The notes: generated from the sequence alone by a model not told the origin. DNA of 51,556 nucleotides from Candidatus Niyogibacteria bacterium (GCA_016214345.1 JACROR010000025.1:1-51556), one strand, 5' to 3'. Shown: positions 1,762 through 34,348, counted from the stretch's first letter. Translations and numbers: made by a program.

Positions 1762-3630
1762 ATGAATATGAAAGATTTGAAAAACTTTTCTTTTAGTAAA
1801 AATATATTGGTCGCGACGCTTATTTTTTTAATTTTAGCGACGACTTATTCGCTGTTTGCCGGAGAATTTAAAAAGATTCCGGAAATTTCCTTTTCCGAGT
1901 TAGTGGCGAAAATTCAGGCCAGTGAAGTGGAAAAAGTAGCCATTCAGGGAAGCGATTTGAATGTTTCGCTCAAAGACGGAGGTCAAGCAACCGCCAAAAA
2001 AGAGAGCGAAGCGGCATTTTCGGAAATTTTGCTTAATTACGGAGTTAGCCGCGAAAAGATCGCGTCTTTGAATATTGTAATTCAGGAGCCGTCCGGTTTT
2101 TGGTTTTGGATGGGGACCATTTTGCCTTTTGCTTTGCCGTTTATTTTGATCGTGGTTTTCTTTTGGCTGGCGGCCAGGCAAGTTTCGCGCGCCAATGTCC
2201 AGGCTTTTACTTTTGGTCAGTCCAAGGCGAGGATGGTTATGCCCGATGACGGTAAAGATCGCGTAAGTTTCAAGGATGTGGCCGGAGTGAAAGAAGCGAA
2301 AGAGGAGCTGATGGAGATAGTTGATTTTTTGAAAAATCCCAAGAAATTTTTGGATATTGGCGCGCGCATTCCCAAGGGCGTGCTTTTGATGGGCCCTCCC
2401 GGGTCCGGCAAAACGCTTTTGGCGCGGGCGGTGGCGGGCGAGGCGCACGTGCCGTTTTTGCATATTTCCGGATCGGAATTCGTGGAGATGTTCGTGGGCG
2501 TGGGCGCGTCCCGGGTGCGGGATACTTTCAGTTTGGCGAAAAAATCCGCGCCGTCCATTATTTTTATTGATGAATTAGACGCCATTGGCCGACATCGCGG
2601 AGCGGGATTGGGCGGCGGGCATGACGAGCGGGAGCAAACCTTAAATCAGATTTTGGTGGAATTGGATGGCTTTGAGCCGCATGAAAAAGTGATAGTGATG
2701 GCGGCGACCAACCGGCCGGATATTTTGGACCCCGCGCTTTTGCGTCCCGGAAGATTTGACCGGAGGATCGTGGTTGACCTGCCGGATTTAAGCGGCAGGG
2801 AAGAGATTTTAAAAATCCACGCGCGAAAAAAGCCGTTGGCAAAGGATATTAATTGGCATACGATTGCCGAGCACACTCCCGGGCTTTCGGGGGCCGATCT
2901 GCAAAATATCGTGAATGAAGCGGCGATCTTGGCGGCGCGGGAGAACCGCAAAGAAGTAACCCAGCGGGATGTTTTGAATTCCATAGAAAAGGTTTTATTG
3001 GGTCCGGAAAGAAAAAGCCACATACTTTCTAAAAAAGAAAAAAGGATTTCCGCGTATCACGAAGCGGGGCACGCGCTGGTTGCGACCGTTTTGCCTCACG
3101 CCGATCCGGTGCACAAGGTTTCCATTGTTTCGCGGGGTCGCGCCGCCGGATATACCATGAAGTTGCCGGCGGAAGACAGGCATTTGTATTCGCGCGCGCA
3201 TTTTTTGGCGGAGCTCGCGGTTTCCGTGGGAGGTTACGCTTCCGAGAAAGAGATTTTTCATGAAATCACGACCGGAGCTTCCGATGATTTGCGCAGAGCT
3301 TCGGATATGGCGCGAGCCTTGGTGACGAAATACGGCATGTCCGAAAAGATCGGGCCCGTGGCTTTTGGCGGTGACGACGAGTTGGTTTTTTTGGGCAAAG
3401 AATTGGGGCACGCTAAAAATTATTCCGAAGAAGTTGCCGCTCTGATAGACCGAGAAGTGAGCCGTCTGATGCAAGACGCCTTTAAGACGGCCACGAAAAA
3501 AATAAAAGAGCATAAAAAAGCGCTGGACGCGATTGCCGATTATCTCACTGAAAAAGAAACCATAGAGCGCGCGGATTTTGATAATTTAATCGCTTCTGTC
3601 GGTTTGAAAGTTAAAAAAGAGCAAATATAA
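1762..3630 (+). CDS. ftsH: ATP-dependent zinc metalloprotease FtsH
   Basis: 622 aa with N-terminal TM segments. Walker A GPPGSGKT, Walker [32 protein letters not shown], zinc site HEAGHA. AGGAG RBS at 1754-1758. Confidence 0.95.
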
Positions 3631-3637
3631 AATAAAT

Positions 3638-3709
3638 GGATGCGTAGCTCAACGGCAGAGCATCGAGCTTATACCTCGGTGGTTCCAGGTTCGAATCCTG
3701 GCGCATCCA
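3638..3709 (+). tRNA. tRNA-Ile, anticodon UAU
   Basis: Hand-folded 72-nt cloverleaf. Acceptor GGATGCG/CGCATCC, D arm GCTC..GAGC, anticodon arm TCGAG-CTTATAC-CTCGG (anticodon TAT), T arm CCAGG-TTCGAAT-CCTGG, discriminator A. No encoded CCA. Confidence 0.85.
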
Positions 3710-3745
3710 CAACATTTGTTTTTATTTCCGAGTGAATACAGATTA

Positions 3746-3826
3746 TACGAAGTATACCTTACGAAGTATACCTCGGTGCCTGCCTGCCGGTAGGCAGGGT
3801 TCCAGGTTCGAATCCTAGTGCGCCCA
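3746..3826 (+). pseudogene. truncated copy of the tRNA-Ile 3' half carrying a 20-bp palindrome insertion
   Basis: 14-bp tandem repeat tacgaagtatacct x2 (3746-3773). Then cctcggtg + cctgcctgccggtaggcagg (3779-3798) + gttccaggttcgaatcctagtgcgccca. This mirrors tRNA-Ile nt 36-72 with 3 substitutions. No 5' half is present. Confidence 0.6.
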
Positions 3827-3866
3827 TAAATATGCAAAAAGCCGCATTTTATCGCGACTTTTTGTA

Positions 3867-3894
3867 TTGACTTATATGGCTTATATTCTATCAT
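3867..3894 (+). promoter_or_regulatory. candidate sigma70-like promoter for the proteasome operon
   Basis: TTGACT (3867-3872), 16-nt spacer, TATCAT (3889-3894), about 55 nt upstream of ATG 3951. Hexamer match only. Confidence 0.35.
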
Positions 3895-3950
3895 TTAAAG
3901 TAAATCGCTTTTTGACATTTGTATAAAACAATACGCGCTGACAGGAGGTA

Positions 3951-4154
3951 ATGATTATGGAAGAATTAATGGTTGCGTTGCGGGAATTGCTGGACGGGGG
4001 ACTTAATTTGTTGCAAGGCAGAATGACTAAAATTCAAAAAGAACGCATACGCAAATTTTTGGCTGACGCACGGGAACTTTTGGAAAAAATATCTGTTCGC
4101 GCCGCGGAATCACAGAATTTTGATGTTGCGCAGAAAAAAATATTGAACAACTGA
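3951..4154 (+). CDS. heptad-rich 67-aa ORF; probably the N-terminal coiled coil of the Mpa-like ATPase, detached by a -1 frameshift at an A7 run
   Basis: AGGAGG at 3943-3948. Helical heptad-like sequence. The downstream frame is already open from 4124 and continues the coiled coil (NIEQLTADISQLTADLEKA). Confidence 0.5.
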   Translation: MIMEELMVALRELLDGGLNLLQGRMTKIQKERIRKFLADARELLEKISVRAAESQNFDVAQKKILNN

Positions 4155-4183
4155 CCGCCGACATTTCGCAATTAACCGCTGAT

Positions 4184-4987
4184 TTGGAAAAAGCCAGAAC
4201 CACGATAGGCGGCAAGGTTGCCACCATGGAACAATTATATAAAGAAATACTTCGTTTAAGGGCGCTTATAGAGCCGCCCTTAAGTTACGGATATTTCGTC
4301 CGCGTGTCGCCCGAAGTGGTTCGCGGAGTGGATCCTATTTTGGGCGAACCCGAGCCGATTAAGGTGGATATTTATGAACCGCACGGAAAATTAATTACGG
4401 TAAATTTAAATCCTGCCATAAATGTTGCTTTGTTGCGGGTCGGACAACGGTTGCGGCTTTCTCCGCAGGGCAATGTGATGACAGTCTTAAATGAATTCGC
4501 GAATTTGGGAGTTACCGCCACGGTGGCTGATGTTTTGGGCAAATTGGTGCTGGTGAATTCTTCCATGGATGAACAGCGTCTTTTACAGGTCGCGGCCAAT
4601 GTAGATGCCACGCAGATCAAATCCGGTTCCAAGATTCTTTACGATCCGATTACGAATATGATTGTCGCCATACTTCCCAAAGAAGAAAAGAGCAGTTTGC
4701 AGATGGAAGAGGTTAAGGCGGTTACTTATAACAGTATAGGCGGCATGGCGGAACAAATCGCTCAATTTGAGGAAAATATAGTTTTTCCGCGGCTTTATCC
4801 GGCCATTTTTCAAAAGTACCAGACCGACGTGCCCAAGGGCGCCGCTTTTTACGGCCCTCCGGGTTGCGGCAAGACTCTTTTGGCAAGAGCCGCGGCTTAC
4901 CGCATAAAACAAGGCGATAAAAAAGTGGTAATTTTCGTGGCGAGCGGTTCGGAATTTCTCGTTAAATGGGTGGGTGATTCCGAGTAA
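4184..4987 (+). CDS. mpa: proteasome-associated AAA ATPase (Mpa/ARC-like), N-terminal part: coiled coil, OB region, Walker A
   Basis: The coiled coil ends in PPLSYGYFVRV (compare Mpa PPSGYGVLL), followed by a double OB-like region and Walker A GPPGCGKT. The ORF ends at in-frame TAA 4985-4987 within the conserved KWVGDSE-x-KVRE segment. The track start is TTG; the first ATG is at 4226. Confidence 0.85.
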   Translation: MEKARTTIGGKVATMEQLYKEILRLRALIEPPLSYGYFVRVSPEVVRGVDPILGEPEPIKVDIYEPHGKLITVNLNPAINVALLRVGQRLRLSPQGNVMTVLNEFANLGVTATVADVLGKLVLVNSSMDEQRLLQVAANVDATQIKSGSKILYDPITNMIVAILPKEEKSSLQMEEVKAVTYNSIGGMAEQIAQFEENIVFPRLYPAIFQKYQTDVPKGAAFYGPPGCGKTLLARAAAYRIKQGDKKVVIFVASGSEFLVKWVGDSE

Positions 4988-5038
4988 AAAGTTCGTGAGC
5001 CCGCCGAATACGCCAAAGCTCATCCGGATATCATAGTT

Positions 5039-5776
5039 TTGTATGTGGTGGATGAGATTGACGCGGTGTGCCGCACCAGGGGATCAAGCGGACATGCCGG
5101 AGTGAACGATTCCATTGTTACGCAATTCAATAGTTTGCTTGACGGTTTTGTGGAGATACCGAATTTAATTTTCATCGGCATTACCAACCGGTTGGATTTG
5201 CTGGACAGTTCGCTTTTGCGTCCCGGGCGCATGGATCTTCAATTAAAGATTCCTCGGCCTGATCGCAAGGGCGCCAAGGAAATTCTGAAAATTTATTTGC
5301 GGCCGGATTTGCCTTTTCACGCCAAATATTTTAACGCGTTGAAATATCCCGATTTAAGCAGTCCTGAAACCGTCGTAGGTTATTTGATTGAAAAGACGCT
5401 GGATCACATCTATGGAGAAGTTGGTCCGAATGATGAGCGTCGCCGCAAAATCGCGACCATTGAATTTTTGGATACGGAAATGAGGCAGACGCTTTATATG
5501 GGCGATCTTATTTCCGGAGCCGTATTAAAGAGCATAGCCAATCGCGCGAAATTAACTGCCGCGTTGGCGGAGAAAAACGGAAAATCTGCCGGCGTGCGCT
5601 TAAAATATTTGCATGACGCGGTAGACGAAGTATTCCGCACGGTGCGCGACCAGATAAGCAAGAGCGGTCCGGAAGAATGGGCGCGAATGGCCGACCTGCC
5701 GTTAGATAAGCCATTTAGAGTTATAGCCGAAAAAGATGATAATGACCCTGACAGCGGCTATAGTCGTACGGCGTAA
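5039..5776 (+). CDS. mpa: proteasome-associated AAA ATPase (Mpa/ARC-like), C-terminal part: Walker B, SRH, lid
   Basis: Same frame as 4184..4987, and the frame is open from 4988. Walker B VLYVVDEIDA, CRTRGSSG, ITNRLDLLDSSLLRPGRMDLQLKIPRPD. These align closely to my recollection of Mpa. Confidence 0.85.
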   Translation: MYVVDEIDAVCRTRGSSGHAGVNDSIVTQFNSLLDGFVEIPNLIFIGITNRLDLLDSSLLRPGRMDLQLKIPRPDRKGAKEILKIYLRPDLPFHAKYFNALKYPDLSSPETVVGYLIEKTLDHIYGEVGPNDERRRKIATIEFLDTEMRQTLYMGDLISGAVLKSIANRAKLTAALAEKNGKSAGVRLKYLHDAVDEVFRTVRDQISKSGPEEWARMADLPLDKPFRVIAEKDDNDPDSGYSRTA

Positions 5777-5795
5777 GTATTGACTTAGCATTAGT

Positions 5796-5826
5796 AAACT
5801 CTCATCATATGATGAGAGTTTTTTGG
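5796..5826 (+). terminator. rho-independent terminator-like hairpin between the ATPase and the Dop-like gene
   Basis: Perfect 20-bp palindrome ctctcatcatatgatgagag (5799-5818), extended by aaa/ttt and followed by a T-run. Confidence 0.55.
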
Positions 5827-5857
5827 TCTTTGAAATACGAAATAGACAGGAGGAATT

Positions 5858-7408
5858 ATGGCTTTGAGCAGTATTTTCGGTACGGAACATGAATACGGTA
5901 TTTTTGCGCCTGACGTAAAAAAATCCGGAGAAAATTATTATATGGCATCAAGACAGGTGTCATACGATATTGTGCGTTTAGGGGCGGATGTTATCGGCGG
6001 ATCAAACAGACAAGGCAGCCTGCCTATCTCCATGGAATCGCTTTTGCGGGAATATGGCTGGGATGCCAAGGATTTCATTGGCGGCAGAGATGTCGCTGAC
6101 GCGTTGCGTTATATAGGCGGTAGCGGCTATATGCTTTGGAACGGAGCGAGGTTTTATGTTGACGCAGGTCATCCGGAATATTCCACTCCGGAATGCAGTA
6201 CGGCTTACGAGCTTTTAGTCGCTGAAAAAGCGGGAGAGAGGATTGTGGAAGCGGCGGGAAAAAAAGCCGAAGGTTTAATGGGTCGTAGAATTTATCTGCA
6301 CAAAGATAATTCCGATCGCCACGGCCATAGTTACGCGGCGCATGAAAATTATCTGGTAACTCCGAAATTGTTTGATTTGCTGGCGCGCGCCGAAGCGTCC
6401 GGTATTTTTAACGCCTGGATTAATTTTTTGGTTACCCGGCAAATTTGGGCCGGAGCAGGGAAGGCAGGGTCTGATTTTGGCGATGAGGCAATTTTTCAAT
6501 TGTCCCAGCGCGCGGAGTTTTTTTCTCGGATCAGTTCGTTAAATACCATGCAATACAGGGGGATTGTTAACACCAGAGATAATTCTTACGCGGACGATTC
6601 ATCGCATAAACGTTTGCATGTCATTTTGGGCGATGCCAATATGTGTGATGTGGCGATTTTTTTGAAAGTCGGCGTGACCGCCTTGTTTCTCAAAATGTTG
6701 GAAGACGATTTTTTCGCGGAGCATAAAACTTTTTTGACGGAGCCGTTACGCTCTCCCTTAGAAGTTCTTCACGATATATCGGTTGACGCGGAAATGCGTA
6801 AAAAATTTTTGTTGCGGAACGAAAAACGTATCGGCGCGTTGGAGGCGCAGGAAGAAGTTTTACGGCTAATCAAAGAATACGGCGGACAAAACCTTTCTTT
6901 ATTAAACGACACGGAAAGAAAGGTGGCGGAACATTTTGAGGAGGTGATTATTCGTTTAAGGCGCGATCCATCTTCGCTTTACGGATGGCTGGATCACATT
7001 ACCAAGCGCGCGATAATCGCGCGGCAGCTTAATCGTTTGGGCAAAGATGCGGGCGATCCGCTCGCGGTGCGTTTGGATTTTCTCTATCACGATATAAACC
7101 GCTCCGCCGGGCTTTTTTATAAGCTCTGCGACGCGGGGCAGATTGTGCAAGTCGCGCAAGAAATTGATGTGATAAGGGCTATGACGGAACCTCCTGAAAC
7201 CACGCGGGCGTGGTTACGCAGCCAAATTTTGAAAAAATTTCACGGCTCTTACGGGCGTTGGAATTTTCTCAATGTGAAAATATCGGATGGCTGGCAAGGG
7301 CTGGTATTGGATAATCCTTCCGCGGGTAGCCGGCAAATGTGTGAAAAATTATTGGAAAAATCGCGTACGGCGGAAGATTTTTTTAAGTTGTGGAAGGAGG
7401 AAAAGTGA
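5858..7408 (+). CDS. dop: Pup ligase/deamidase family protein, Dop-like (long insert after the first strand)
   Basis: 516 aa. FGTEHEYG, NGARFYVDAGHPEYSTPEC, HENYLV, LVTRQIWAGAGK, INTRD, RLHVILGDANM. There are about 85 aa between TEHEYG and NGARFY, as in Dop. AGGAGG RBS. Confidence 0.8.
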   Translation: MALSSIFGTEHEYGIFAPDVKKSGENYYMASRQVSYDIVRLGADVIGGSNRQGSLPISMESLLREYGWDAKDFIGGRDVADALRYIGGSGYMLWNGARFYVDAGHPEYSTPECSTAYELLVAEKAGERIVEAAGKKAEGLMGRRIYLHKDNSDRHGHSYAAHENYLVTPKLFDLLARAEASGIFNAWINFLVTRQIWAGAGKAGSDFGDEAIFQLSQRAEFFSRISSLNTMQYRGIVNTRDNSYADDSSHKRLHVILGDANMCDVAIFLKVGVTALFLKMLEDDFFAEHKTFLTEPLRSPLEVLHDISVDAEMRKKFLLRNEKRIGALEAQEEVLRLIKEYGGQNLSLLNDTERKVAEHFEEVIIRLRRDPSSLYGWLDHITKRAIIARQLNRLGKDAGDPLAVRLDFLYHDINRSAGLFYKLCDAGQIVQVAQEIDVIRAMTEPPETTRAWLRSQILKKFHGSYGRWNFLNVKISDGWQGLVLDNPSAGSRQMCEKLLEKSRTAEDFFKLWKEEK

Positions 7409-9000
7409 AGAGAATATATTCCACGGAAGTTGAATATGGCAGCACGGTCATAAAATTATCCGATGGGAGCTGTCATTTTGATATTCCCGGAAGAGTTGAG
7501 TTAAAAAATGCCATGTTGACCAATGTGGTCAGTTCAAAGCGATTAATGGAGCAAGAATTCCAATTTCCGCAGTTTATGAAAAATGGCAGCAGGGCTTATC
7601 TGGATTTAAATCACATTGAATATGCCGCTCCGGAATGCATTACTCCGGAGGATGCCGTAGCCGCGGAATTGGCCGGCGGCGCTTTGCTTGCGGATGGTTT
7701 GGTTCACGATGGTTTTCGCTTGATTCTGATAAAAGACAATGTGGCTTTAAAAAAGTTTGAAACTGCCGGCAGGGATTATCGGGATGTTGGAAGCTATGCC
7801 GCGTTGCTTACTTCCTATGTTTATGACAGTGAGCAGAGATTGGCTACTTGCGGTTGCCATGAAAATTACTCGTTTAATTTGGATAGGATTGCCCGGCTTG
7901 CGCAATCGCCGTTATCTCCAAAAGAGAATCCCGCTTTTCGATTGGCGCATGCCGATTATTTAGCTCAAAAATTGGCCGCGTTTTTGATTGCCAGGCAGAT
8001 TTTTGCCGGTGCCGGAACTTTTTATTTCGGCAGGCCGTCTATTTCCGTGCGCAGCCTGTTTATTGATATGTTGCATAGCAATATTACTACACAACATAAG
8101 CCTCTCATTAATACCAAAAATGAACCGCATGGCAAAGTTCATCGTCTGCATTTGATTCTGGGAGACGGTAATATGGCGGAAGTCGCGTCTTTTCTTAAGT
8201 TGGGGACTACCGGTTTAGTGCTTCGGCTGCTGGAAGACGATAAAATAGGCCCGTCATTGGAGCTGGAGAATGTTTCTGACGCGACAGCTTTGGTTAAAGA
8301 GATCGCGTTTGATCGCGCTTGCTCCGCACGGTTGCTCAAGATGAAAAATGGCGACTTATTGACTGCCTGCGAATTGCAAAGAAAGTTTTTAGATCTCGCG
8401 GCGAGTCATTATCCCAAGGAAAACGACTCCGAAGCGGTTAGGTGTTCCACGGAAAAAGTATTTGAATGGTGGAATTATGTTTTGGACAAATTGGAGAACG
8501 GTGAAATGAAAGACTTGGTTGGCGTGCTTGATTGGCCGACTAAATTCCATCTTGGGGAATTGCTTTTGAAAAGATACGGGATTGCCATGTCTGATTTGCC
8601 GAAAGCGATTTTGCGGCACGAAAAACGCGCTGAAGTGGCGGCTCGTTTGAGAATGCTGGAACAGAGATACCACGAATTGTCGGAAAACGGATTATCTGCG
8701 CGTTTAAAGGCGCAAGGTATCATGACTCGTATAATTGATCCCGCTAAAATAATTTATTTCAAGGATCATTCTCCCCGAGAAACGCGGGCTTACGGGAGAA
8801 GCGAGTTGCTTAGGTTTGTGGAATCGCGATGTCCCGTTTTTCTCCTAAGAAAGTGCGATTGGGGTCAAATTACTTTGGTAAAAAAAGACGCTGATGAAAC
8901 CATCTCGGAAGTGTTGGAGTTTGAGATGGATGACCCGTTTGTGTCCATGGCCTTGCCAATAGAGCATTTTTTAGTTAAAAATGGTTGGAGAAAGGAGTGA
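7405..9000 (+). CDS. pafA: Pup ligase/deamidase family protein, PafA-like
   Basis: STEVEYG, NGSRAYLDLNHIEYAAPEC, CHENYS, IARQIFAGAG, INTKNEPH, RLHLILGDGNM. Likely GTG start at 7405 after AGGAGG, overlapping the dop stop (GTGA). The track ORF starts at 7390. Confidence 0.8.
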   Translation: MKRIYSTEVEYGSTVIKLSDGSCHFDIPGRVELKNAMLTNVVSSKRLMEQEFQFPQFMKNGSRAYLDLNHIEYAAPECITPEDAVAAELAGGALLADGLVHDGFRLILIKDNVALKKFETAGRDYRDVGSYAALLTSYVYDSEQRLATCGCHENYSFNLDRIARLAQSPLSPKENPAFRLAHADYLAQKLAAFLIARQIFAGAGTFYFGRPSISVRSLFIDMLHSNITTQHKPLINTKNEPHGKVHRLHLILGDGNMAEVASFLKLGTTGLVLRLLEDDKIGPSLELENVSDATALVKEIAFDRACSARLLKMKNGDLLTACELQRKFLDLAASHYPKENDSEAVRCSTEKVFEWWNYVLDKLENGEMKDLVGVLDWPTKFHLGELLLKRYGIAMSDLPKAILRHEKRAEVAARLRMLEQRYHELSENGLSARLKAQGIMTRIIDPAKIIYFKDHSPRETRAYGRSELLRFVESRCPVFLLRKCDWGQITLVKKDADETISEVLEFEMDDPFVSMALPIEHFLVKNGWRKE

Positions 9001-9005
9001 GGGAG

Positions 9006-9638
9006 ATGTTCGACAACTTAAAATCTACTACTGTGGTTTCCGCGGTTTACGGTTCCGGAGCGATTATTGCCGCGGACAGACAGGCCACCGGCGGTCATGA
9101 TTTGCATAAGTTGCCGTACGACGTGTTCAAAATCGTAGGGCTGACTGATTTTGCCATGGCCGGCATATCCGGTTTTCCCAAGACTTTGGAGACTTTGGAA
9201 GAAGTGAAGCGGGTGTTTGGTCTCTGGAAGATTTTATACGATCGGGAGGTGTCTATTGAGGGCCAGTTTAATTTTCTGAAACGGGTGCCTCTGATAGTTC
9301 CTGTGGGCAAAGAAGTAACGGTGAGTGGTATTTTAATGGCTGCTTTTGACCGTGATATTGGCAAGGGCAGAGTATTTTTATTTGATCCCGCGCTTGCTAT
9401 GGAGATTCCCAACTATGCGGCTATCGGCAGTGGCGGTACGGCATGTTTCAGCGCTTTGGAGCTTGGCCAATACCGTACGGATATGCGTTTTGAGGAAGCC
9501 GTCAGGAAAGTTTCCGGGGCGCTCCGATATTCTCATGAACATAATGCCGGAGTGGGAGATAATTTTTTCGGATTTCAATTGGATGCGGGCGGAATTAGGG
9601 AAATTTCTTCTTTGCTTAATGCCAAGGAGGTAGGATAA
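9006..9638 (+). CDS. prcB: 20S proteasome beta subunit (Ntn hydrolase, catalytic Thr)
   Basis: ATG 9006 gives MFDNLKS|TTVVSAVYGSGAIIAADRQATGG, a 7-aa propeptide followed by Thr1, with Asp17 and a Lys in FKI. GSG motif later in the sequence. The track ORF starts at 8985. Confidence 0.85.
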   Translation: MFDNLKSTTVVSAVYGSGAIIAADRQATGGHDLHKLPYDVFKIVGLTDFAMAGISGFPKTLETLEEVKRVFGLWKILYDREVSIEGQFNFLKRVPLIVPVGKEVTVSGILMAAFDRDIGKGRVFLFDPALAMEIPNYAAIGSGGTACFSALELGQYRTDMRFEEAVRKVSGALRYSHEHNAGVGDNFFGFQLDAGGIREISSLLNAKEVG

Positions 9639-10258
9639 TGGATCGTCAGTTTGGCAAAGAAAAGGCGCGTCGCGAATGGGTTGGTTCTAAATTAAAGAAT
9701 GCCGCTCCGATTGCGATAGTTCCTTTTAAGGACGGTTTGGCGGCGGTAACTGCCAAATCGCATTTTCGCAAAGTGCGCGCGGTTGACCAACATATTTTGT
9801 TTGCCGCTACGGGCGAATATGAGAGCGTAAATATATTGCACAGCTGGCTGGTGGAAGACGTGTTACGTATAATAAAAACCTTTTCCGAGCGCGATGTGTT
9901 TATGGAATCGGTTGTGGATAATCCAGACGGAGCAATAGCGCATGTGGCGCGCGCGTTTTATTCGGATCCGGTAGTCGCGGAATTAGCGCTGTTGTTTGCG
10001 GAAAAAGGGAAATTTTTCGGTGTGGTGATCAATTCGTTTGGAGAACGGAAATATTTAGACGGCGATGGCGCGGTTATCGGAGGCAAACCCGAAATGGGAG
10101 AATTGCTTACGAAGAAATTACGCGAAGCTCCGCCGTCCACGGAAAAAGAAGCTGTCGCGCTGGCAGCCGAAGTTTTGAAAATAAATGGCGAACAGCGTGA
10201 ATGGGAAGTCGGAGTTTTGTCCGGTTCCGGCATAAGGTTTACGAGAGGAGGAGAATAA
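9638..10258 (+). CDS. prcA: 20S proteasome alpha subunit (short, 206 aa)
   Basis: Proteasome-fold paralog without an N-terminal Thr. It directly follows prcB with a TAATG overlap. Assignment rests on position plus weak similarity. Confidence 0.7.
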   Translation: MDRQFGKEKARREWVGSKLKNAAPIAIVPFKDGLAAVTAKSHFRKVRAVDQHILFAATGEYESVNILHSWLVEDVLRIIKTFSERDVFMESVVDNPDGAIAHVARAFYSDPVVAELALLFAEKGKFFGVVINSFGERKYLDGDGAVIGGKPEMGELLTKKLREAPPSTEKEAVALAAEVLKINGEQREWEVGVLSGSGIRFTRGGE

Positions 10259-10422
10259 TGGGCGATCAGGATCGCAAAACGCGAAGGCGCCCGCCCGGCG
10301 TTAAACCGCCGAGCGAGGAAGATAAGCGCGAACAGGATAAGGAGATAGATAAGGGCATAGACGATCTTCTGAAAGAAGATGAAGATCTGGCACAGAGACG
10401 GAAAGAAGAAGAAGGGGAATAA
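10258..10422 (+). CDS. pup: Pup/UBact-like prokaryotic ubiquitin-like tag, C-terminal Gly-Glu
   Basis: 54 aa, 33 of them charged, with no hydrophobic core. IDKGIDDLLKEDEDL resembles the Mpa-binding helix of Pup. Ends ...EEGE. The ATG overlaps the prcA stop (TAATG). The track ORF start at 10201 lies inside prcA. Confidence 0.7.
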   Translation: MGDQDRKTRRRPPGVKPPSEEDKREQDKEIDKGIDDLLKEDEDLAQRRKEEEGE

Positions 10423-10446
10423 TTGTTCTTTGCAGAATTTTTATAA

Positions 10447-10482
10447 AAATCCCGCTATGATATGGCGGGATTTTTTTTTATT
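10447..10482 (+). terminator. rho-independent terminator of the proteasome operon
   Basis: Hairpin aatcccgc-tatgatatg-gcgggatt followed by a T9 run. Confidence 0.8.
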
Positions 10483-10494
10483 TTGTAAGATAAG

Positions 10495-12033
10495 ATGATG
10501 CCTTACGAATATTTAAATATAGCTACGGCGCGGGATCTCTCCGGCCAAGATCGCTTGATTTACCGTTTTTTTGAAATCATTCCCGGTTTGCTTTCCTGGG
10601 GAACTATCGCGGGGGCGATTATTTTTTCCTGGCTTTGGCCTGTTGGAATGGCGATATTCATTATCATTTTTGATATTTATTGGCTGATCAAAACCGCGTA
10701 TCTTTCAGCGCATTTGCGCGTGAATTGGCAGAGATTGCGTCATAATTTAGGCGCTGATTGGAAGTTAAAATTAGAAAATTTCAAATACGGTCACATTTGG
10801 CAGTTGGTGCTTCTGCCCATGTACCGAGAAGACCAAGAGGTGATAGAAGAGTCTTTGAATAAAATTATGGAAAGCAAATGGCCCCAGGAGCGGATGATAA
10901 TTGTTCTGGCGATTGAAGAGCGGGCCGGAGAGTACGCGCGGACAGTCGCGGAGGATGTGCAAAAAAAACATGCCGCGCGCTTCGCCCATTTTTTAGTAGT
11001 GTCGCATCCCGCGGATATGCCGGGCGAAATTCCCGGAAAGGGATCCAATATAGCTTTCGCGGCGCGGATGGTTAAAGAAAAAATTATAGATCCGGCCGGG
11101 ATTCCGCATGAAGATATTTTGGTTTCCGCTTTTGACATAGACACCCAGATTTATCCGCAATACTTTTTTTGTCTTACTTACCATTTTTTGACCGCGGACA
11201 ATCCGCATCGCGTGTCTTTTCAGCCGGTGCCTGTTTATAACAATAATATCTGGCAAGTGCCGGCGCTTTCCCGCGTGGTTGCCACCTCGGGAACTTTTTG
11301 GCAAATGATGCAGCAGGAAAGGCCTGAAAGATTGACCACATTTTCTTCGCATGCATTGAGTTTTAAGGCTCTGGAAGATATCGGTTATTGGCAAAAAAAT
11401 ATGGTATCCGAAGATTCGCGCATTTTTTGGAAAGCCTTTTTGCGTTTTGACGGAAATTACGGAGTGGTGCCGTTATCTTATCCCATTTCTTTGGACGCCA
11501 ACGCGGGAAGTAATTTTTGGTCTACGATCAAAAATGTATATAAACAACAGCGCCGCTGGACCTGGGGCGTGGAAAATCTTCCTTATTTTATGTTTGGCTG
11601 TCTGAAAAATAAAAAAATGCCTTTAGGCAAAAAGATTCGCGCGCTTTTATATCAATTGGAGGGTTTTTGGTCATTAACGACCAATCCGCTTTTAATTTTT
11701 ATATTGGGATGGCTGCCGCTTTTTTTGGGAGGGCAGGAGTTTAATGAGATGCTTTTATCTTATAATTTGCCGCGCGTGACGCGGACCTTGATGAGTATTG
11801 CCATGACCGGACTTATTGCTTCGGCGATTATTTCCACAAACCTGCTTCCGTCACGTCCGCCGCGTGCCCGCAAATCCAGCTATCTTTTTATGGTATTGCA
11901 GTGGCTTTTGATTCCCGTGACTATAATATTTTTTGGAGCGATTCCCGGATTGGACGCCCAGACGCGCCTGATGTTTGGCAAATATATGGGTTTTTGGGTA
12001 ACGCCCAAAGGGCGGCAACCAAAAGTTGGTTAG
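10495..12033 (+). CDS. membrane-embedded family 2 glycosyltransferase (processive, cellulose/chitin-synthase-like)
   Basis: 512 aa with multiple TM segments flanking a cytoplasmic GT-A domain. FDIDT (D-x-D-like) and the QQRRW (QxxRW) motif. Confidence 0.6.
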   Translation: MMPYEYLNIATARDLSGQDRLIYRFFEIIPGLLSWGTIAGAIIFSWLWPVGMAIFIIIFDIYWLIKTAYLSAHLRVNWQRLRHNLGADWKLKLENFKYGHIWQLVLLPMYREDQEVIEESLNKIMESKWPQERMIIVLAIEERAGEYARTVAEDVQKKHAARFAHFLVVSHPADMPGEIPGKGSNIAFAARMVKEKIIDPAGIPHEDILVSAFDIDTQIYPQYFFCLTYHFLTADNPHRVSFQPVPVYNNNIWQVPALSRVVATSGTFWQMMQQERPERLTTFSSHALSFKALEDIGYWQKNMVSEDSRIFWKAFLRFDGNYGVVPLSYPISLDANAGSNFWSTIKNVYKQQRRWTWGVENLPYFMFGCLKNKKMPLGKKIRALLYQLEGFWSLTTNPLLIFILGWLPLFLGGQEFNEMLLSYNLPRVTRTLMSIAMTGLIASAIISTNLLPSRPPRARKSSYLFMVLQWLLIPVTIIFFGAIPGLDAQTRLMFGKYMGFWVTPKGRQPKVG

Positions 12034-12469: not shown

Positions 12470-14575
12470 TTATTCAAAATGCGCGTTTTGAGCGCGATTT
12501 TCCATGCGCGTTTTTAACGCGGGATATTTTTTGAGTTCCAAATCTTTTTGCAGAAGTATGCGCGCTTCATTCCTCGCTGCTTCAACCATTTTCAGATTTT
12601 TCAGGGCTTCCATTCCTATGTCGGATATGCCCCATTGTTTTTTTCCGGACAGTTCTCCGGTGCCGCGGAATTCCAGGTCATATTCCGCAAGTTCAAAGCC
12701 GTTTTCGGCCTTGGTCAGGGCGGCCAGACGGTCGGCGGTTTTTTTGCTTTCTGATTCGGTAAAAATAAAGCAATGGGGCTCATGCGCGCTTCTCACTACG
12801 CGTCCGCGCAGTTGATGAAGTTGCGCCAGGCCGAATCGTTCCGCGCCCTCAATCAATATTATGGTGGCATTGGGCACGTTAACTCCCACTTCTATAACCG
12901 AGGTTGCCACGAGAATGTTGGTTTTGCCGTCTCGGAATTCATTCATCGCTTTTTCTTTTTCCGGAGGAGTCATTTTTCCATGGAGCATGCCGATTTTAAA
13001 TTCCGGAAAAATTTCTTGCGCGAGTTTTTTATGTTCTTCTTTTACGGCTTTCAGATTCAGCGAAAGCAGTGAATCGGCTTTTTCTTCGCCGGGATTTATT
13101 CTTGGGCATACCACATACGCTTGCCTGCCTTTAGATATTTCTTGCCGCATTTTTTCATAAGCGATAAGCCTCTCGTGCGGCGGTACTATTTCGGTAATTA
13201 TTTTTTTTCTGGACGGAGGCATTTCATCCAAGAGCGTCAAATCAAGGTCGCCATAGATAGTTAAAGCGAGAGTTCGCGGTATGGGTGTGGCGGTCATGCT
13301 AAGCAGATGAGGCATCACCTCTTTTTCTTTTTTGGTGAGTCGGCCGCGCTGTGAAATTCCGAAACGATGTTGTTCATCCACGATAACCAAAGCGAGATTT
13401 TTGAAACGGACTTTGTCTTGGATTAGGGCGTGCGTTCCTATAAGCATCGGGGTTTCGCCTTGAAGCGTCCAGCGCAGGAGCTGGGATTTGGAAATGTGCG
13501 TGGCTTCATTCGGTCTGACTTTGGAGGGAAATTTCAGGCACTCGGAAGAGGTGATCATTCCTATTTTTATTTTCTCTCCCATGGCAGAAAATCTCTCCGT
13601 AAATTCTTTGAAATGTTGGCGCGCGAGGATTTCGGTAGGCGCCATGTAGGCGACTTGGTAGCCATTTTTAATGGTTGCGTAACTCGCGGCCGCGGCCACT
13701 ACGGTTTTGCCGGATCCCACGTCTCCTTCCAGGAGGCGCGCCATGGGCGAAGGGCCGCGGAGGTCCTCTAAAATATCTTGAACGGCTTTATTTTGAGCGT
13801 TGGTAAGTTGGTAGGGCAGGGATTCCAGAAAATCAAGAACATCCGTGTCAACGATGGAGAGAGCGGGCTTTTCGTCGCGCAACATTTTTTCTTTCACGCG
13901 GGAAAGCTGTATCAAAAATATTTCTTCAAACGCGAATCTTTTGCGCGCGGCCTGGGCGTCGTTTAAGTTCCGCGGCGTATGTATATATAGAAGAGAGTCG
14001 CGCAAATTGGGCAAATGATATTTTTTCAAAATTTCCGGCGGTATCAAGTCATGGTAGGCGTCGGGATCTAATTGCGCGAGAGTTTTGCGTATGGCGTATT
14101 GGAGCCACCGCGATGACAGCCCCCTGGTTTCAGGATAAATGGGACTCAAAGCGTTTTCTTGGTAATTTTCTTTCGCGGCGATAAACGAATAATTCGGATT
14201 GGAGAAATATAGTCCGCGCCCATCTTCTTGCACTGTTCCAAAAATAGAGGCATTAACCCCTTTTTTCAAAGCATGGGCGATATACGGCTGATGGAACCAG
14301 ATGGCGCGGATTACGCCCGTGCCGTCGCTTAACTCAATTTCGGCGATGCGCAACTTTTTTTTCCAAGTTTTTCCAAGTTTAGAAGCTATTATTTTGCCGG
14401 ACACCTCGGCTTTGTCGCCCTTGCTTAAATCCGCGATGCTTTTGACGGGCAACACATTTTCGTAGCGGGCGGGGAAATGCCAAAGCAGGTCGCGTACGGC
14501 GAGGATGCCAAATTTTTCCAGCGTTTTTTCTTGCGCGGGCTTTAGGTGGAGATAGTTTTTGATGGGTCTATCCAT
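12470..14575 (-). CDS. recG: ATP-dependent DNA helicase RecG
   Basis: 701 aa. Wedge/OB N-terminus, helicase motifs GDVGSGKT, DEQHRFG, SMTATPIPRT, QLHQLRGRVVR. Confidence 0.93.
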   Translation of the reverse strand: MDRPIKNYLHLKPAQEKTLEKFGILAVRDLLWHFPARYENVLPVKSIADLSKGDKAEVSGKIIASKLGKTWKKKLRIAEIELSDGTGVIRAIWFHQPYIAHALKKGVNASIFGTVQEDGRGLYFSNPNYSFIAAKENYQENALSPIYPETRGLSSRWLQYAIRKTLAQLDPDAYHDLIPPEILKKYHLPNLRDSLLYIHTPRNLNDAQAARKRFAFEEIFLIQLSRVKEKMLRDEKPALSIVDTDVLDFLESLPYQLTNAQNKAVQDILEDLRGPSPMARLLEGDVGSGKTVVAAAASYATIKNGYQVAYMAPTEILARQHFKEFTERFSAMGEKIKIGMITSSECLKFPSKVRPNEATHISKSQLLRWTLQGETPMLIGTHALIQDKVRFKNLALVIVDEQHRFGISQRGRLTKKEKEVMPHLLSMTATPIPRTLALTIYGDLDLTLLDEMPPSRKKIITEIVPPHERLIAYEKMRQEISKGRQAYVVCPRINPGEEKADSLLSLNLKAVKEEHKKLAQEIFPEFKIGMLHGKMTPPEKEKAMNEFRDGKTNILVATSVIEVGVNVPNATIILIEGAERFGLAQLHQLRGRVVRSAHEPHCFIFTESESKKTADRLAALTKAENGFELAEYDLEFRGTGELSGKKQWGISDIGMEALKNLKMVEAARNEARILLQKDLELKKYPALKTRMENRAQNAHFE

Positions 14576-16005: not shown

Positions 16006-18582
16006 ATGCTTGTTCAAGACAATGCGCGTTTGCCGAAGACCGTCAAGCCGGTATGTTACGATCTGGTTTTTGAACCTGATCTGGAAAATTTTATTTTTCG
16101 GGGAATGGCGCAGATTGACGTATTGATCGCGGAGGATGTTTCTTCAATAACTCTTCACGCGAAAGAGTTGAGCGTTGATTATGTTATTTTGCAAAGAGAC
16201 GGAAAAGCTTTTGTTCCGTCAGTGGTGTTTGATCAGGAAGCCGAGCGCGTTATTTTCGTTTTCAGCGAAAATATTTCAGCGGGTGACGTGCGATTACTGA
16301 TCCGTTTTCAGGGCGTGTTGAACGATCAGATGGCCGGTTTTTACCGGAGTGTCTACGAGGTTAGCGGCGAGAAGCGGATCATGGCGACAACGCAATTTGA
16401 AGATACTTCCGCCCGCCGCGCGTTCCCATGCTGGGACGAGCCGGCGATAAAGGCGCGATTCAAAGTTACTTTGAAGATTCCCAAACATCTGCAGGCCGTT
16501 TCCAATATGCCCGCGGTTTCGGAGAAGTTATGCCGGGACAAGAAAATAATCCGTTTTGGCGTCACGCCCCTCATGTCCACGTATCTGCTGGCGTTTGTCG
16601 TCGGAGAATTGGAACACATTGAGGCAACGACCAAGGACGGTATTTTGGTGAGAGTGTTCACTACTCCGGGCAAAAAAGCACAGGGCGAGTTCGCGCTCTA
16701 CGTGGGCGTGAAAGCGCTTGAATTTTATAACGACTATTTCGGGATAGCGTATCCGCTGCCCAAAATGGACATGGCGGCGATTCCTGATTTCGCGGCCGGA
16801 GCGATGGAGAACTGGGGACTGATTACTTATCGTGAGTTTGACTTTTTAATTGATCCTAAAAATTCTTCCAGCGCGAGGCATCAGCGCGTTGCCATTGTGG
16901 TGGCGCACGAGATTGCGCATCAGTGGTTCGGCAATCTGGTGACCATGGAGTGGTGGACCCAGCTGTGGTTAAACGAAGGTTTTGCCAGTTGGATGGAATA
17001 TTTCGCCGTGGACCATGTGTTTCCGGAATGGAACATTTGGGAGCAGTTCATGTCCGATGCTTTCGCTTCGGCGTTGGCGCTGGACGGCTTGCGAAGTACG
17101 CATCCCATAGAGACTGTCATAAAACACCCGAGCGAGATCGGGCAAACTTTTGACGCCATAAGCTATGAAAAAGGCGCGTGCGTCATTCGCATGATACACG
17201 ACTACATTGGCGCGGAAAATTTTCGCAACGGCCTTAAGCTTTATCTTATATGGTACGCTTACGGTAATGCCGTGACCGAGGATCTGTGGCAGGCGTTGGA
17301 AGAGGTGTCGGGCAAGCCGGTGCGTAAGATCATGGATACCTGGACCAAGCAGCCCGGTTATCCGCTGATCTCGTTGAAACAAACATCAGACGGCAAGTTT
17401 GAGCTGGAACAGTCGCGTTTTCTTTCCAGCGGAGAGAAGTTATCGCCGGAAGAAGCATCCGAGTTGTGGCAAATATCTTTGCCGTTTCAAAATGCAGCGG
17501 GGGACAGCCAAAAAGTTTTGCTTTCCGATCGCGCTTCGTTGGTTAAACTTCCGTCGGATCATGGCGGATGGTTCAAATTAAACGCCGGACAAATGGCTTT
17601 AGCGCGCGTGAATTACACGCCCGAGCTTTGGGATAGATTGAAGAAAGCGCTCCGGAGGGGCTTGCTTTCTGTGGTAGATCGCGCGGGTTTGGCAAACGAT
17701 ATTTACGCGTTAACCGAGTCGGGTGTTTTACCTGCCACGCAATTGTTGTCTGTTCTCACGGCATATCAGGGAGAAACAGAATACATTGTGTGGGACGACA
17801 TTGTGGGAAGTTTGGGCGGCATTAATTTGCTTTTGCCTAATGGCGGTGTGCGCGCGAATTTCGATTCTTTCGCCCGTGATTTGCTATCGCGGATCGTGGC
17901 AGAAAAAGGATGGGAAGAAAATCCAAACGAAACACACAGCCAAAAGCTTTTGCGTCCTATGGTTTTATCGGCCACCGGTTTTTATGGCGATGTGGAAGTA
18001 ATTGAAGAAGCGAAAAACCGTTTTCGTTTTTTCCTGAAAGATCCCGAGACACTTGATCCAAATTTGCGTTCCATGGTGTATGGCCTGATTGCGAGATATG
18101 GCGATACTCGCACGCTTGAAACTTTAATTGAGTGTTACAGGAAAGTGCCAAGGCAGGAAGAAAAAATGCGTTTTTTGGTAGCGCTTGCTCAATTTCAGGA
18201 CATGCGGATTTTGGAAGAAGCGTTGAAATTCGCTTTTTCCGACGAGGTGCGTTCGCAGGATCTGGGTTATTTTGTGGGCAGTATCGGAAGAGATGGGCAA
18301 GAATTGATGTGGCGCGAATTACAAGTTCGCTTCCCTGAATTGATGAGTCGCTATGATGGCAAACTTTCCGGCATTATTAGAAGCACTATTGAAGGTTTTG
18401 GTTCCGAGGAGAAGGCGCGGGAAGTGGAAGAATTTTTCCGCGTGCACCCGGTGCCTGCCGCGAGTCAGGCGATAAGCCAAGGCTTGGAGCGGATCCGTGC
18501 CCGAGCGGCGTGGATCGCGAGGGATCTGCCCGCGATCACCGCGTGGCTTGAAAAATGGTCCTTTGATAATATTTTGAAATAA
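16006..18582 (+). CDS. pepN: M1-family aminopeptidase N (with ERAP1-like C-terminal domain)
   Basis: 858 aa. GAMENWG exopeptidase motif and HEIAHQWFGNLVT-x17-WLNEGFA zinc site. AGGAGG RBS. Confidence 0.93.
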   Translation: MLVQDNARLPKTVKPVCYDLVFEPDLENFIFRGMAQIDVLIAEDVSSITLHAKELSVDYVILQRDGKAFVPSVVFDQEAERVIFVFSENISAGDVRLLIRFQGVLNDQMAGFYRSVYEVSGEKRIMATTQFEDTSARRAFPCWDEPAIKARFKVTLKIPKHLQAVSNMPAVSEKLCRDKKIIRFGVTPLMSTYLLAFVVGELEHIEATTKDGILVRVFTTPGKKAQGEFALYVGVKALEFYNDYFGIAYPLPKMDMAAIPDFAAGAMENWGLITYREFDFLIDPKNSSSARHQRVAIVVAHEIAHQWFGNLVTMEWWTQLWLNEGFASWMEYFAVDHVFPEWNIWEQFMSDAFASALALDGLRSTHPIETVIKHPSEIGQTFDAISYEKGACVIRMIHDYIGAENFRNGLKLYLIWYAYGNAVTEDLWQALEEVSGKPVRKIMDTWTKQPGYPLISLKQTSDGKFELEQSRFLSSGEKLSPEEASELWQISLPFQNAAGDSQKVLLSDRASLVKLPSDHGGWFKLNAGQMALARVNYTPELWDRLKKALRRGLLSVVDRAGLANDIYALTESGVLPATQLLSVLTAYQGETEYIVWDDIVGSLGGINLLLPNGGVRANFDSFARDLLSRIVAEKGWEENPNETHSQKLLRPMVLSATGFYGDVEVIEEAKNRFRFFLKDPETLDPNLRSMVYGLIARYGDTRTLETLIECYRKVPRQEEKMRFLVALAQFQDMRILEEALKFAFSDEVRSQDLGYFVGSIGRDGQELMWRELQVRFPELMSRYDGKLSGIIRSTIEGFGSEEKAREVEEFFRVHPVPAASQAISQGLERIRARAAWIARDLPAITAWLEKWSFDNILK

Positions 18583-19239: not shown

Positions 19240-20673
19240 TTATTGGTTTGTGGTCGGCGTTACTGATGTAGGAATTGGTTTGGTTTCAGTTTGTGTTTGA
19301 GTAGTAGCGCGTTCCGCCTCTTTTATCTGCAATTGTTTGTAGTATTCTTCCATATTTATCGGTTTGGGCGTCAGTGTGGGCATTGGTTTTATCACATTGG
19401 CGCACGCGCCCTTGCTCGCGATAGCCGTTCCCGCAACTTTAGCCTTGCAGATGTTGCTGTAAGTTTTGCCGTCTACTCCGCATACCGGCTCCCAGGCTTT
19501 TGCACACGCAGCGATCGTTCCGGTCTGTGATTTGGCATCAATGCGTTTCTGTTCTTCTTTTCTCAATTCAATTCTTTTTTGGAGTAAAGATCCCACATCT
19601 TCGCCGTTTGATGTCGGTTGCGCAGAGCTTGTTTCCGCTTTCTCCGCGTCGATCTTTTCCAGATATGCTTTGCGCGTGGCATCATCTTCTATGTTCATCA
19701 ATCTTTTTTCCACTTTATTGATCACTTCTTCACGCGAAGATTTTATCTTTTCTTTAAGACCCGCGGGCAACCCTTGTTTTTCCAGTCGGTTGATAATTTC
19801 CGCCTGTTTCAATTCATCGCCACCGATTTTTTCCAGATAAGTTTTGAATTTGGTTTGATCTTCGGGAGACATCTGGTTTAGGTCGCCATGCAGGCGATTA
19901 AGCGCGTTTTCTTGGGCTCTTTGGATCGCTGCTTTGGCTTGTTCAGGCAATTTTTCTTCCAGTTTCAATAACACTTCCAAATTTTTGAAGTTTTTGAATT
20001 GGCCGCCCTTCTGTTCGTCCAGCGCTTTTTCCATTCTTTCTTTGATTTTTTCCGGGTTTTCTTTTTGCATCAATTCCGCGAATTTTTCCAGCGTTTTTTC
20101 CTGCGCTTTCAGCACTCTTTCCTTGGCCTGTTCAGGCAATTTTGAAGCAAGGTTATCCATCAATTTTTGGCGTTTTAGTTGGAAGTCGGTCAGTTTGTTT
20201 AACAATTTTTCGGCAGCCGGGTCCGTGGATGACAGCGCGCTTGCGGCATCTTTGGCTTTCTCCATTTCTGTTTCGTAGTTTTGCATCGCGCTATTTAAAA
20301 CAGCCGGGTCCTGCGTCTTCTCGGAGAGTTTTCGCGCTTCCACTAACTTTTCATTGGCGAATTGCGCCCGTAACTCCGCCTTTTTGATTTTGTTGAAAGT
20401 CAGAGCGGATTGGACGCCACGGCTCCAGTTTTTGAAGAAATAAAACGGGCTGTCCGGAAGAACGGTCGGTTCGGCAACGTTCAAGTCTGTCGCGGTTACG
20501 GTTTGGTCCGCCGCCACAGCAGCATCTACCTGGCTGTTGGTTGCGGCCGCGGCATCGGTTACGACGTTAGTCGCGGTGTCGGTTACGGTCGCGGCCTCTT
20601 CCGCGAAAGCGAAAGAAACGCCTGCGAGCAACACAAATATTGATAATAACGCTATTTTTGTCTTCATATTCAT
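19240..20673 (-). CDS. secreted coiled-coil protein with a C-terminal Kazal-type protease-inhibitor-like domain
   Basis: Signal peptide MNMKTKIALLSIFVLLAGVSFAFA. Long Lys/Glu-rich helical region. C-terminal CAKAWEPVCGVDGKTYSNICKAKVAGTAIASKGAC matches the Kazal C-x-PVCG-x-DG-x-TY-x-N-x-C pattern. Confidence 0.7.
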   Translation of the reverse strand: MNMKTKIALLSIFVLLAGVSFAFAEEAATVTDTATNVVTDAAAATNSQVDAAVAADQTVTATDLNVAEPTVLPDSPFYFFKNWSRGVQSALTFNKIKKAELRAQFANEKLVEARKLSEKTQDPAVLNSAMQNYETEMEKAKDAASALSSTDPAAEKLLNKLTDFQLKRQKLMDNLASKLPEQAKERVLKAQEKTLEKFAELMQKENPEKIKERMEKALDEQKGGQFKNFKNLEVLLKLEEKLPEQAKAAIQRAQENALNRLHGDLNQMSPEDQTKFKTYLEKIGGDELKQAEIINRLEKQGLPAGLKEKIKSSREEVINKVEKRLMNIEDDATRKAYLEKIDAEKAETSSAQPTSNGEDVGSLLQKRIELRKEEQKRIDAKSQTGTIAACAKAWEPVCGVDGKTYSNICKAKVAGTAIASKGACANVIKPMPTLTPKPINMEEYYKQLQIKEAERATTQTQTETKPIPTSVTPTTNQ

Positions 20674-27065: not shown

Positions 27066-27106
27066 CGGTTATTAAAAATTATTTAACAGAGTAAATTAAG
27101 GCGAAT

Positions 27107-27673: not shown

Positions 27674-27677
27674 ATTC

Positions 27678-28510: not shown

Positions 28511-28537
28511 AATAATAGTTTCAAAGATATTCAAATT

Positions 28538-31897: not shown

Positions 31898-31935
31898 TTT
31901 GGAAACCGAGTTTCCAAAAATGTTAGAATAGAATT

Positions 31936-34320: not shown

Positions 34321-34348
34321 TTTAAAGCGCCACGCTTTAAAAATACTT

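Follow-up and report, generated by a model that had tools for sequence, protein, structure and literature searches.

Whether a member of the Patescibacteria, or candidate phyla radiation (CPR), can mark proteins with a Pup-like tag and degrade them in a 20S proteasome is the question raised by a stretch of 51,556 nt from a Candidatus Niyogibacteria bacterium (GCA_016214345.1, JACROR010000025.1:1-51556), referred to here as the window, over the whole length of which coordinates are counted. Bacterial proteasomes and pupylation have been treated as essentially actinobacterial, and as sporadic elsewhere. In the operon region of the window (3867-10482, plus strand), genes were found for a proteasomal AAA ATPase of the Mpa/ARC type, two paralogs of the Pup ligase family (one of Dop type and one with the architecture of PafA), a beta and an alpha-like subunit of a 20S proteasome, and a small charged protein that is a tag candidate. 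An initial annotation had taken this region for a full degradation-tagging machine; the same-strand open reading frames (ORFs) and the motifs that it quoted are present at the positions it gave, and a Pup-type tagging and 20S gene set in a Patescibacteria genome is borne out, but the gene for the unfoldase contains a frameshift and a nonsense codon, both absent from six relatives, and a full machine is not supported. The locus likely represents the bacterial Pup-proteasome system in a variant of the Patescibacteria lineage, with an ATPase recently disabled by these two lesions.

The ATPase gene and its two lesions

Seven Patescibacteria loci were compared, i.e., the window with L001, L002, L003/L004, L005, L006/L007 (Candidatus Terrybacteria), and L090 and L091 (both Logan contigs). 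The nearest relative, L002, is a metagenome-assembled genome (MAG) titled Patescibacteria group bacterium H32-bin003, with approximately 80% nucleotide identity. The ATPase gene, which has AGGAGG ahead of its start codon (ATG 3951/3957), encodes a coiled coil, OB domains, the Walker A motif GPPGCGKT, the pore loop KWVG and the Walker B motif VVDEID, and matches the Pfam families AAA (3.5e-28) and Prot_ATP_ID_OB_C (8.5e-10); its best NCBIfam family is TIGR03689 (pup_AAA), with 316 bits, which is under the cutoff of 505 bits. The gene had been annotated as a single ORF, however it reads as three pieces (3951-4154 in frame 0, 4184-4987 in frame 2 and 4988/5039-5776 in frame 2), being broken by a frameshift and by an in-frame stop. 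The frame changes at a run of seven A residues (CAG AAA AAA ATA) in the coiled-coil region, with homology to L002 persisting on either side of the junction. The codon at the position of the in-frame TAA is CAA (Gln) in L002 and CAT, GCG or CGG in the other relatives, and the residues flanking this site, VGDSE and KVREPAEYAKAHPD, are the same as in L002. After conceptual repair the protein of 608 aa aligns end to end, across both lesions, with the ATPases of the relatives (557-646 aa), which are intact in six out of six and in L002 encoded by one ORF of 606 aa. Compared with what defines the TIGR03689 type, the domains and motifs are kept, but the ORF is broken twice and the GQYL docking end is absent.

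Other explanations of interrupted ATPase genes were rejected. An alternative genetic code was ruled out as intact neighboring genes use TGA and TAA as normal stops, and a functional split ATPase was ruled out as the downstream pieces have no Shine-Dalgarno sequence and Walker A is separated from Walker B by the break. The ATPase that is unannotated in L006 is due to a scaffold N-gap and does not represent a lesion.

As the sequence is known from one sample only (SRR12113407), the operon might be intact in the organism, with the frameshift and the stop arising from errors in sequencing or in the consensus, or from sub-population alleles that the assemblers happened to pick. The position of one lesion in a homopolymer, a classic error site, fits this explanation, as does the low ratio of nonsynonymous to synonymous substitution rates (dN/dS) of the ATPase body, in which no additional lesions have accumulated. 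It is an unlikely one, considering that the Logan assembly of SRR12113407, a different assembly, matches positions 2632-11571 of the window (8,940 bases) at 100% identity and likewise has the ATPase gene in these three pieces, and that the second lesion is a substitution and not an indel. Furthermore, the window contains about 80 homopolymer runs of at least 7 bases, among which the frame is broken only at 4134-4140; no break was seen in the other 46 ORFs of the window, 41 of which were scanned against Pfam with no split gene and with the matched domains covered essentially end to end, and for the five other operon genes the alignments with their relatives cover the full length. For two random lesions in 45.8 kb of coding sequence, the probability that both fall into the 1.8-kb ATPase gene is approximately 0.0016.

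Alternatively, the interruptions could be programmed, with transcriptional or ribosomal slippage on the A7 run and read-through of the TAA providing a low, regulated level of full-length ATPase. Slippage on poly(A) rescues frameshifted genes in endosymbionts, and the change of frame falls exactly on the A7 run, where one added A restores the frame. However, both features are absent from all six relatives, and at the corresponding positions L002 shows no stop codon and no run of A residues. Read in the zero frame, the site also departs from the canonical X XXY YYZ heptamer, and two independent events of low efficiency, multiplied, would give a negligible yield, all of which makes programmed recoding very improbable.

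Regarding selection, the dN/dS values relative to L002 are 0.11-0.13 for the ATPase body, 0.10-0.28 for the other five operon genes, with the tag candidate at 0.10, and 0.04-0.09 for flanking genes, indicating that the whole operon gene set has been under purifying selection. Since the ATPase body still shows this signature, the knock-out would be recent.

Tagging enzymes, tag candidate and 20S subunits

The six family assignments of the initial annotation hold directly for the ATPase, the two Pup_ligase paralogs and the beta subunit, while the alpha-like subunit and the tag candidate were matched only via profiles built from their relatives. Both ligase paralogs belong to the family PF03136 (359 and 242 bits, cutoff 25 bits), and the core motifs expected of its members, i.e., GhExE, the catalytic Asp in NGxRxYxD, HPEY, HENY and RLHxxxGD, were detected in both of them, in agreement with the catalytic residues previously assigned. 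The Dop-type paralog scores 310 bits against TIGR03688 (Dop) and 258 bits against the PafA family, the Dop equivalog cutoff being 492 bits, and it aligns over its full length with the Acidothermus Dop structure 4B0R (250 bits), compared to 160-162 bits for structures of PafA. In this paralog, 92 residues separate ExE from the catalytic Asp, compared to 76-87 in actinobacterial Dop and 48 in PafA; the spacing of 92 residues indicates that the Dop loop is present. Two neighbor-joining trees of the ligases were built. The first groups the Patescibacteria Dop copies with actinobacterial Dop at 98.5% bootstrap; the second, which includes sequences from UBact loci, has 82% for Patescibacteria and actinobacterial Dop together and 82% for a wider clade that includes the Dop of UBact loci.

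The PafA-like paralog has the motifs ExE, NGxRxYxD, HxEY, HENY and RLHLILGD and a spacing from ExE to Asp of 59 residues, with no Dop loop. Its sequence affinity is ambiguous, as judged from scores of 184 bits for TIGR03686 (PafA) and 176 bits for Dop, both far under cutoff, and from PDB matches of 127 bits for Dop and 115 bits for PafA. An exhaustive phmmer search of 1.84 billion representative proteins with this paralog as the query retrieved 3,147 family members at E<=0.001, and only 7 clusters exceed 250 bits; this ligase subfamily is therefore rare. The ligases of the Patescibacteria relatives are named PafA2 family proteins in public annotation, and the description of the system as unexpected in such a genome was therefore overstated. 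The split of the PafA-like gene in L007 was ruled out as a lesion, being due to a scaffold N-gap.

The ORF of 54 aa ending in Gly-Glu that had been proposed as the tag is present, and all seven loci have a corresponding ORF as their final gene, which ends in Glu in 7/7 and in Gly-Glu in 6/7. In L091 the tag ORF (12800-13006) ends in Asn-Ala-Glu, and only the final Glu is invariant across the seven tags. When compared with Pup, the tag ends in EEGE and not in GG[QE], and its gene adjoins the alpha gene and not a ligase gene; when compared with UBact, for which a C-terminal R[T/S]GE is expected, the position of its gene differs from the interval between dop and prcB. Profiles were aligned with hhalign, the seven tags being compared to 47 Pup sequences from metagenomic loci and to two UBact sequences. 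The match to the Pup profile has a score of 35.6 and a probability of 82-92%, while column-shuffled controls gave 1.8 +/- 1.7 (global mode) and 7.8 +/- 1.9 (local mode) and never exceeded 14.1. The match to UBact, a weak comparison as it involves two sequences only, has a score of 13 (controls 3.3 +/- 2.1 global, 8.2 +/- 1.6 local). As the profile scores favor Pup and the curated hidden Markov models (HMMs) miss the tag, it is best described as a distant relative of Pup outside both curated families, apparently closer to Pup than to UBact; the label UBact-type used in the initial annotation is not supported, since the tag misses PF20513 and its profile is nearer to Pup. A database search with the profile of the tag family returned only 7 proteins, all of which are close relatives with no informative names.

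Regarding the 20S subunits, the beta subunit scores 53 bits against PF00227 (cutoff 22 bits) and 41 bits against TIGR03690 (cutoff 192 bits). A profile of five relatives has its best matches in the PrcB proteins of Rhodococcus and M. tuberculosis (1.6e-25 to 2e-18), which it ranks ahead of archaeal and eukaryotic subunits. The propeptide of 7 aa (ATG 9006; MFDNLKS), Thr1, Asp17 and Lys recognized previously align to these PrcB sequences; the equivalent of Lys33 is present with a 2-residue insertion, and Gly-Ser129-Gly is kept. Residues 180-185 of the beta subunit, NAGVGD (window 9543-9560), hold the positions equivalent to 166 and 169. The Ser/Thr169 position is Val in the window, and Val, Val, Val, Val or Thr across the five aligned sequences. 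The alpha-like sequence by itself has no match in Pfam or NCBIfam, however a profile of 5 relatives has Rhodococcus and M. tuberculosis PrcA as its best matches (6e-7 to 1e-6, positions 8-193), and the orthologs in L003 and L090 carry PF00227. An AlphaFold2 model of the alpha-like protein from the single sequence had a pLDDT of 43, too poor for use.

Locus organization, known systems and origin

The layout of the locus is summarized in Table 1. The translational overlaps described in the initial annotation, GTGA at 7405-7408 and TAATG at 9636-9640 and 10256-10260, were all found, and dop, pafA-like, prcB, prcA and the tag gene form a tightly coupled unit with start and stop codons that overlap or nearly abut. 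The claim of one operon extending from promoter to terminator stands in so far as both signals were found, but a hairpin separates the ATPase gene from dop. L002 keeps the TTGACT...TATCAT promoter block and the hairpin ahead of it. Just behind the stop codon of the ATPase gene, all seven Patescibacteria loci have a GC-rich stem-loop that runs into a T-rich tail, and the window hairpin differs from its L002 counterpart (3097-3122) by one compensatory pair change; promoter-like hexamers (5780-5859) overlap it. This conserved hairpin is probably an internal terminator or attenuator, which implies that the ATPase gene is probably a transcription unit of its own, or attenuated, and that the region probably consists of two units rather than one. 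With the ATPase gene set apart in this way, its lesions need not be polar on the downstream genes.

Table 1. Features of the operon region and their positions in the window.
Feature	Position	Strand	Description
Hairpin terminator	3835-3864		Directly 5' of the promoter; closes the FtsH/tRNA unit
Sigma-70-like promoter	3867-3894	+	TTGACT, 16 nt, TATCAT; 10/12 matches
Mpa/ARC-type proteasomal AAA ATPase, interrupted (pseudogene)	3951-5776	+	Domain and motif matches
A7 run, frame 0 to frame 2	4134-4140	+	Continuous ORF again with one A added
In-frame TAA	4985-4987	+	Three codons past the pore loop KWVG; between Walker A and Walker B
Terminator-like stem-loop and T run	5796-5821	+	Between ATPase and dop
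Dop-type paralog, candidate depupylase	5858-7408	+	516 aa; Dop-loop insertion; Pup_ligase 4e-107
PafA-architecture paralog, candidate ligase	7405-9000	+	531 aa; GTG 7405 overlaps dop stop (GTGA); Pup_ligase 2e-71
20S beta subunit	9006-9638	+	210 aa; 7-aa propeptide, then Thr1; Pfam Proteasome 3e-14
20S alpha-like subunit	9638-10258	+	206 aa; start overlaps beta stop (TAATG); profile of relatives
Charged tag candidate	10258-10422	+	54 aa; ends ...EEGE; start overlaps alpha stop (TAATG)
Intrinsic terminator	10445-10482	+	14-bp stem (hairpin 10445-10475) and T9

The order ATPase, Dop, PafA-like, beta, alpha and tag is common to the seven Patescibacteria lineages, and the non-canonical gene order previously noted for the window is therefore conserved in seven loci. 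As a control, 80 metagenomic Pup-ligase loci of about 30% identity were collected in a scan with generic patterns back-translated from the PafA-like alignment; none of the 80 has the Patescibacteria order. In every control locus that keeps both paralogs the beta gene lies between them, and where a tag ORF was found it encodes a Pup ending in GG[QE] and follows Dop. Two UBact loci have the order Mpa, Dop, UBact (PF20513), beta, alpha and PafA. Compared to both Pup and UBact loci, the positions of the tag and the ligase are exchanged in the Patescibacteria, whereas the gene order in pupylating organisms has been called 'rigidly conserved' (PMC3511204).

The actinobacterial Pup-proteasome of M. 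tuberculosis and Rhodococcus has the same six components, and shares with the Patescibacteria system the Dop loop, the PafA spacing, Thr1, Asp17 and Lys33 of the beta subunit, and the coiled coil and OB domains of the ATPase, as well as a small, charged tag, here with a Gly-Glu end and a profile that matches Pup. In contrast to the actinobacterial system, the ligase here follows Dop and the tag comes last; the tags end in E/S/G-Gly-Glu while Pup ends in Gly-Gly-Gln/Glu, and they are missed by PF05639 and TIGR03687; the ligase lies outside the canonical PafA clade, the beta subunit has Asn166 and the ATPase has no GQYL; all NCBIfam scores are under the equivalog cutoffs and the ATPase gene is broken. 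The UBact loci of Nitrospirae and other Gram-negative phyla likewise represent a non-actinobacterial Pup-like system, with a tag encoded with a Gly-Glu end, a basic residue a few positions upstream of it and a basic N-terminus, and with ligases that are also outside the canonical PafA clade. They differ in their gene order and in PF20513, which the Patescibacteria tags miss, and the Patescibacteria Dop is nearer to actinobacterial Dop than to the Dop of UBact loci (82% bootstrap). In Corynebacterium, pupylation genes are kept while the 20S genes are absent (PMC3511204). As in Corynebacterium, tagging enzymes persist here with part of the degradation machinery missing, but the pattern is the opposite, with the 20S genes kept and the ATPase lost, and the loss is recent and found in one population only.

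Regarding the origin of the locus, a foreign gene set, either a mis-binned actinobacterial or Nitrospira fragment, as the initial annotation had allowed for, or a very recent horizontal acquisition, was considered, given that the Dop-type paralog, the beta and the alpha subunits are each most similar to actinobacterial proteins and that a tRNA and the remnant of a tRNA are found immediately ahead of the operon. Such an origin is highly unlikely, as the locus is collinear with contigs of Patescibacteria group bacteria (L002; L003, GCA_022563755) and of Candidatus Terrybacteria (L006), and in most loci FtsH precedes the operon and a GT2-like gene and RecG come after it, these flanks (FtsH, tRNA, GT2-like, RecG) being collinear in at least five loci, three of them from Patescibacteria or Candidatus Terrybacteria records. 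The GC content is even across the window, the identity to actinobacterial Dop is only 35-38%, and the Dop sequences of the Patescibacteria branch as a sister group of actinobacterial Dop rather than from within it. The tRNA 3' repeat has only two copies, at 3682 and 3799, a distance of 117 bases, and the operon is not enclosed by them; a tRNA-flanked island carrying the operon was ruled out accordingly.

The upstream block (3638-3826) consists of a tRNA-Ile with anticodon UAU (3638-3710) and, behind it, what remains of the 3' half of a tRNA. Two copies of the block GTTCCAGGTTCGAATCCT occur, at 3682 and 3799, the acceptor end of the remnant, GTGCGCCCA, matches the single tRNA of L002 at the same position, and a direct repeat, ACGAAGTATACCT, is present in two copies just ahead of the remnant; the sequence looks like a replacement or duplication scar beside the operon promoter. 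An M1-family aminopeptidase of 858 aa (Peptidase_M1 and ERAP1_C; 16006-18582) is encoded 5.5 kb downstream of the operon, its start being syntenic in L002. An M1-family enzyme acts on proteasome and tricorn products in archaea, and by analogy a functional link of this enzyme to the operon is possible. A triad of PrkA, DUF444 and SpoVR lies beside the operon in Terrybacteria-like relatives, downstream in L006 (13252-17701) and upstream in L090 (1115-5835). Further genes of the window include a complete type IV pilus cluster (25938-37821) with a PilM-like protein, two T2SSE ATPases, a T2SSF platform protein, five N-methyl pilin-like ORFs and an A24 prepilin peptidase, which is typical of Patescibacteria, and two unusual ORFs, encoding an ELP3-like radical-SAM and GNAT protein of 596 aa (45437-47227) and a DUF5667 protein with a Kazal-type protease-inhibitor domain (19240-20673).

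Predicted function and significance

The steps of the predicted mechanism follow from homology to the actinobacterial system (PMC3511204, PMC2588565, PMC7947786). The PafA-architecture ligase would use ATP to activate the side-chain carboxylate of the C-terminal Glu of the tag and join it to lysines of the substrate; deamidation would be unneeded because the tag is encoded with a Glu end. The Dop-type paralog would remove the tag. An Mpa-type ATPase would bind the tag through its N-terminal coiled coil, unfold the substrate and thread it into the 20S particle of alpha rings and beta rings with Thr1, whose protease core would degrade it. In the window, the loss of an A from the homopolymer in the coiled-coil region and a CAA-to-TAA nonsense change would have knocked out the ATPase gene. 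Most likely, tagged folded proteins are no longer delivered to the 20S core by an ATP-dependent route in this population, or only at a severely reduced level, while the genes for the tagging enzymes, the tag and the 20S subunits are intact, and are either starting to decay or kept for roles independent of the ATPase.

Several observations weigh against this interpretation. With E values of 10 or less accepted, the tag has no match to Pup (PF05639/TIGR03687), whereas M. tuberculosis Pup as a control gives 3e-22; none of the five tags scanned matches the HMMs of Pup or of UBact (PF20513), although an ORF from a Nitrospira locus does match the latter; the role proposed for the tag draws on its position, composition, C-terminal Glu and profile-profile match. 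The PafA-like paralog falls outside the canonical PafA clade (0% bootstrap for a grouping with it), on a long unplaced branch. At the Asp166 position, all five aligned beta sequences have Asn, and replacement of Asp166 by Asn impairs autoprocessing in yeast beta5; Asn166 and Val169 could affect autolysis of the propeptide or activity. The ATPases of the Patescibacteria group lack the Mpa GQYL motif at their C-termini, that of the window ending in ...SGYSRTA. Within the operon alone, the probability of both lesions falling into the ATPase gene is 0.08, and for this reason no claim is made that the other five genes remain under selection. The window and the Logan contig may share one read set, in which case a minority or erroneous allele is conceivable, if improbable. 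The group is moreover known here from its genes, and its function is predicted.

Regarding the C-termini of the ATPases (window 5740-5776, and those of L002, L003, L005, L007, L090 and L091), an aromatic residue is found 2-5 residues from the end, the terminal sequences in the window and the six relatives including GYSRTA, GFNSMA, DFSSKA, GFNSRM, DYSVA and PYA. Docking of the ATPase on the alpha ring may therefore differ from that of Mpa.

The components of the system are known, and its presence in CPR bacteria is not itself new; the UBact paper of 2017 by Lehmann et al. reportedly lists CPR phyla among the carriers, and a literature search found no paper on proteasomes in Patescibacteria. New with respect to what could be checked are the swapped gene order, a tag family missed by the HMMs, the divergent ligase, Asn166, the internal terminator and the ATPase knock-out. 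That these traits define a third, separately organized lineage of tag-and-proteasome systems, with its own tag family, swapped ligase and tag genes, a divergent ligase, an Asn166 beta subunit and a separately terminated ATPase, is a tentative and rather doubtful proposal. If it were true, the natural knock-out of the ATPase would show that loss of the unfoldase is compatible with retention of the tagging module and the 20S core, possible roles being regulatory tagging or, for the 20S particle alone, the degradation of already unfolded proteins.

Under the favored reading as a lineage variant of the Pup-proteasome system, a small group of ultra-reduced Patescibacteria has kept a rearranged 6.5-kb version under purifying selection, which adds data on the spread of the system between phyla. 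It may serve as a compact, divergent system for comparative biochemistry, concerning what defines a Pup-like tag, what separates ligase from deligase and whether an Asn166 beta subunit processes itself. It also matters for annotation, in which the tag and alpha genes are now labeled 'hypothetical' or remain uncalled. The broken ATPase gene cautions against deducing from a list of motifs that a pathway works and, if real, would be a natural experiment on the dispensability of the unfoldase.

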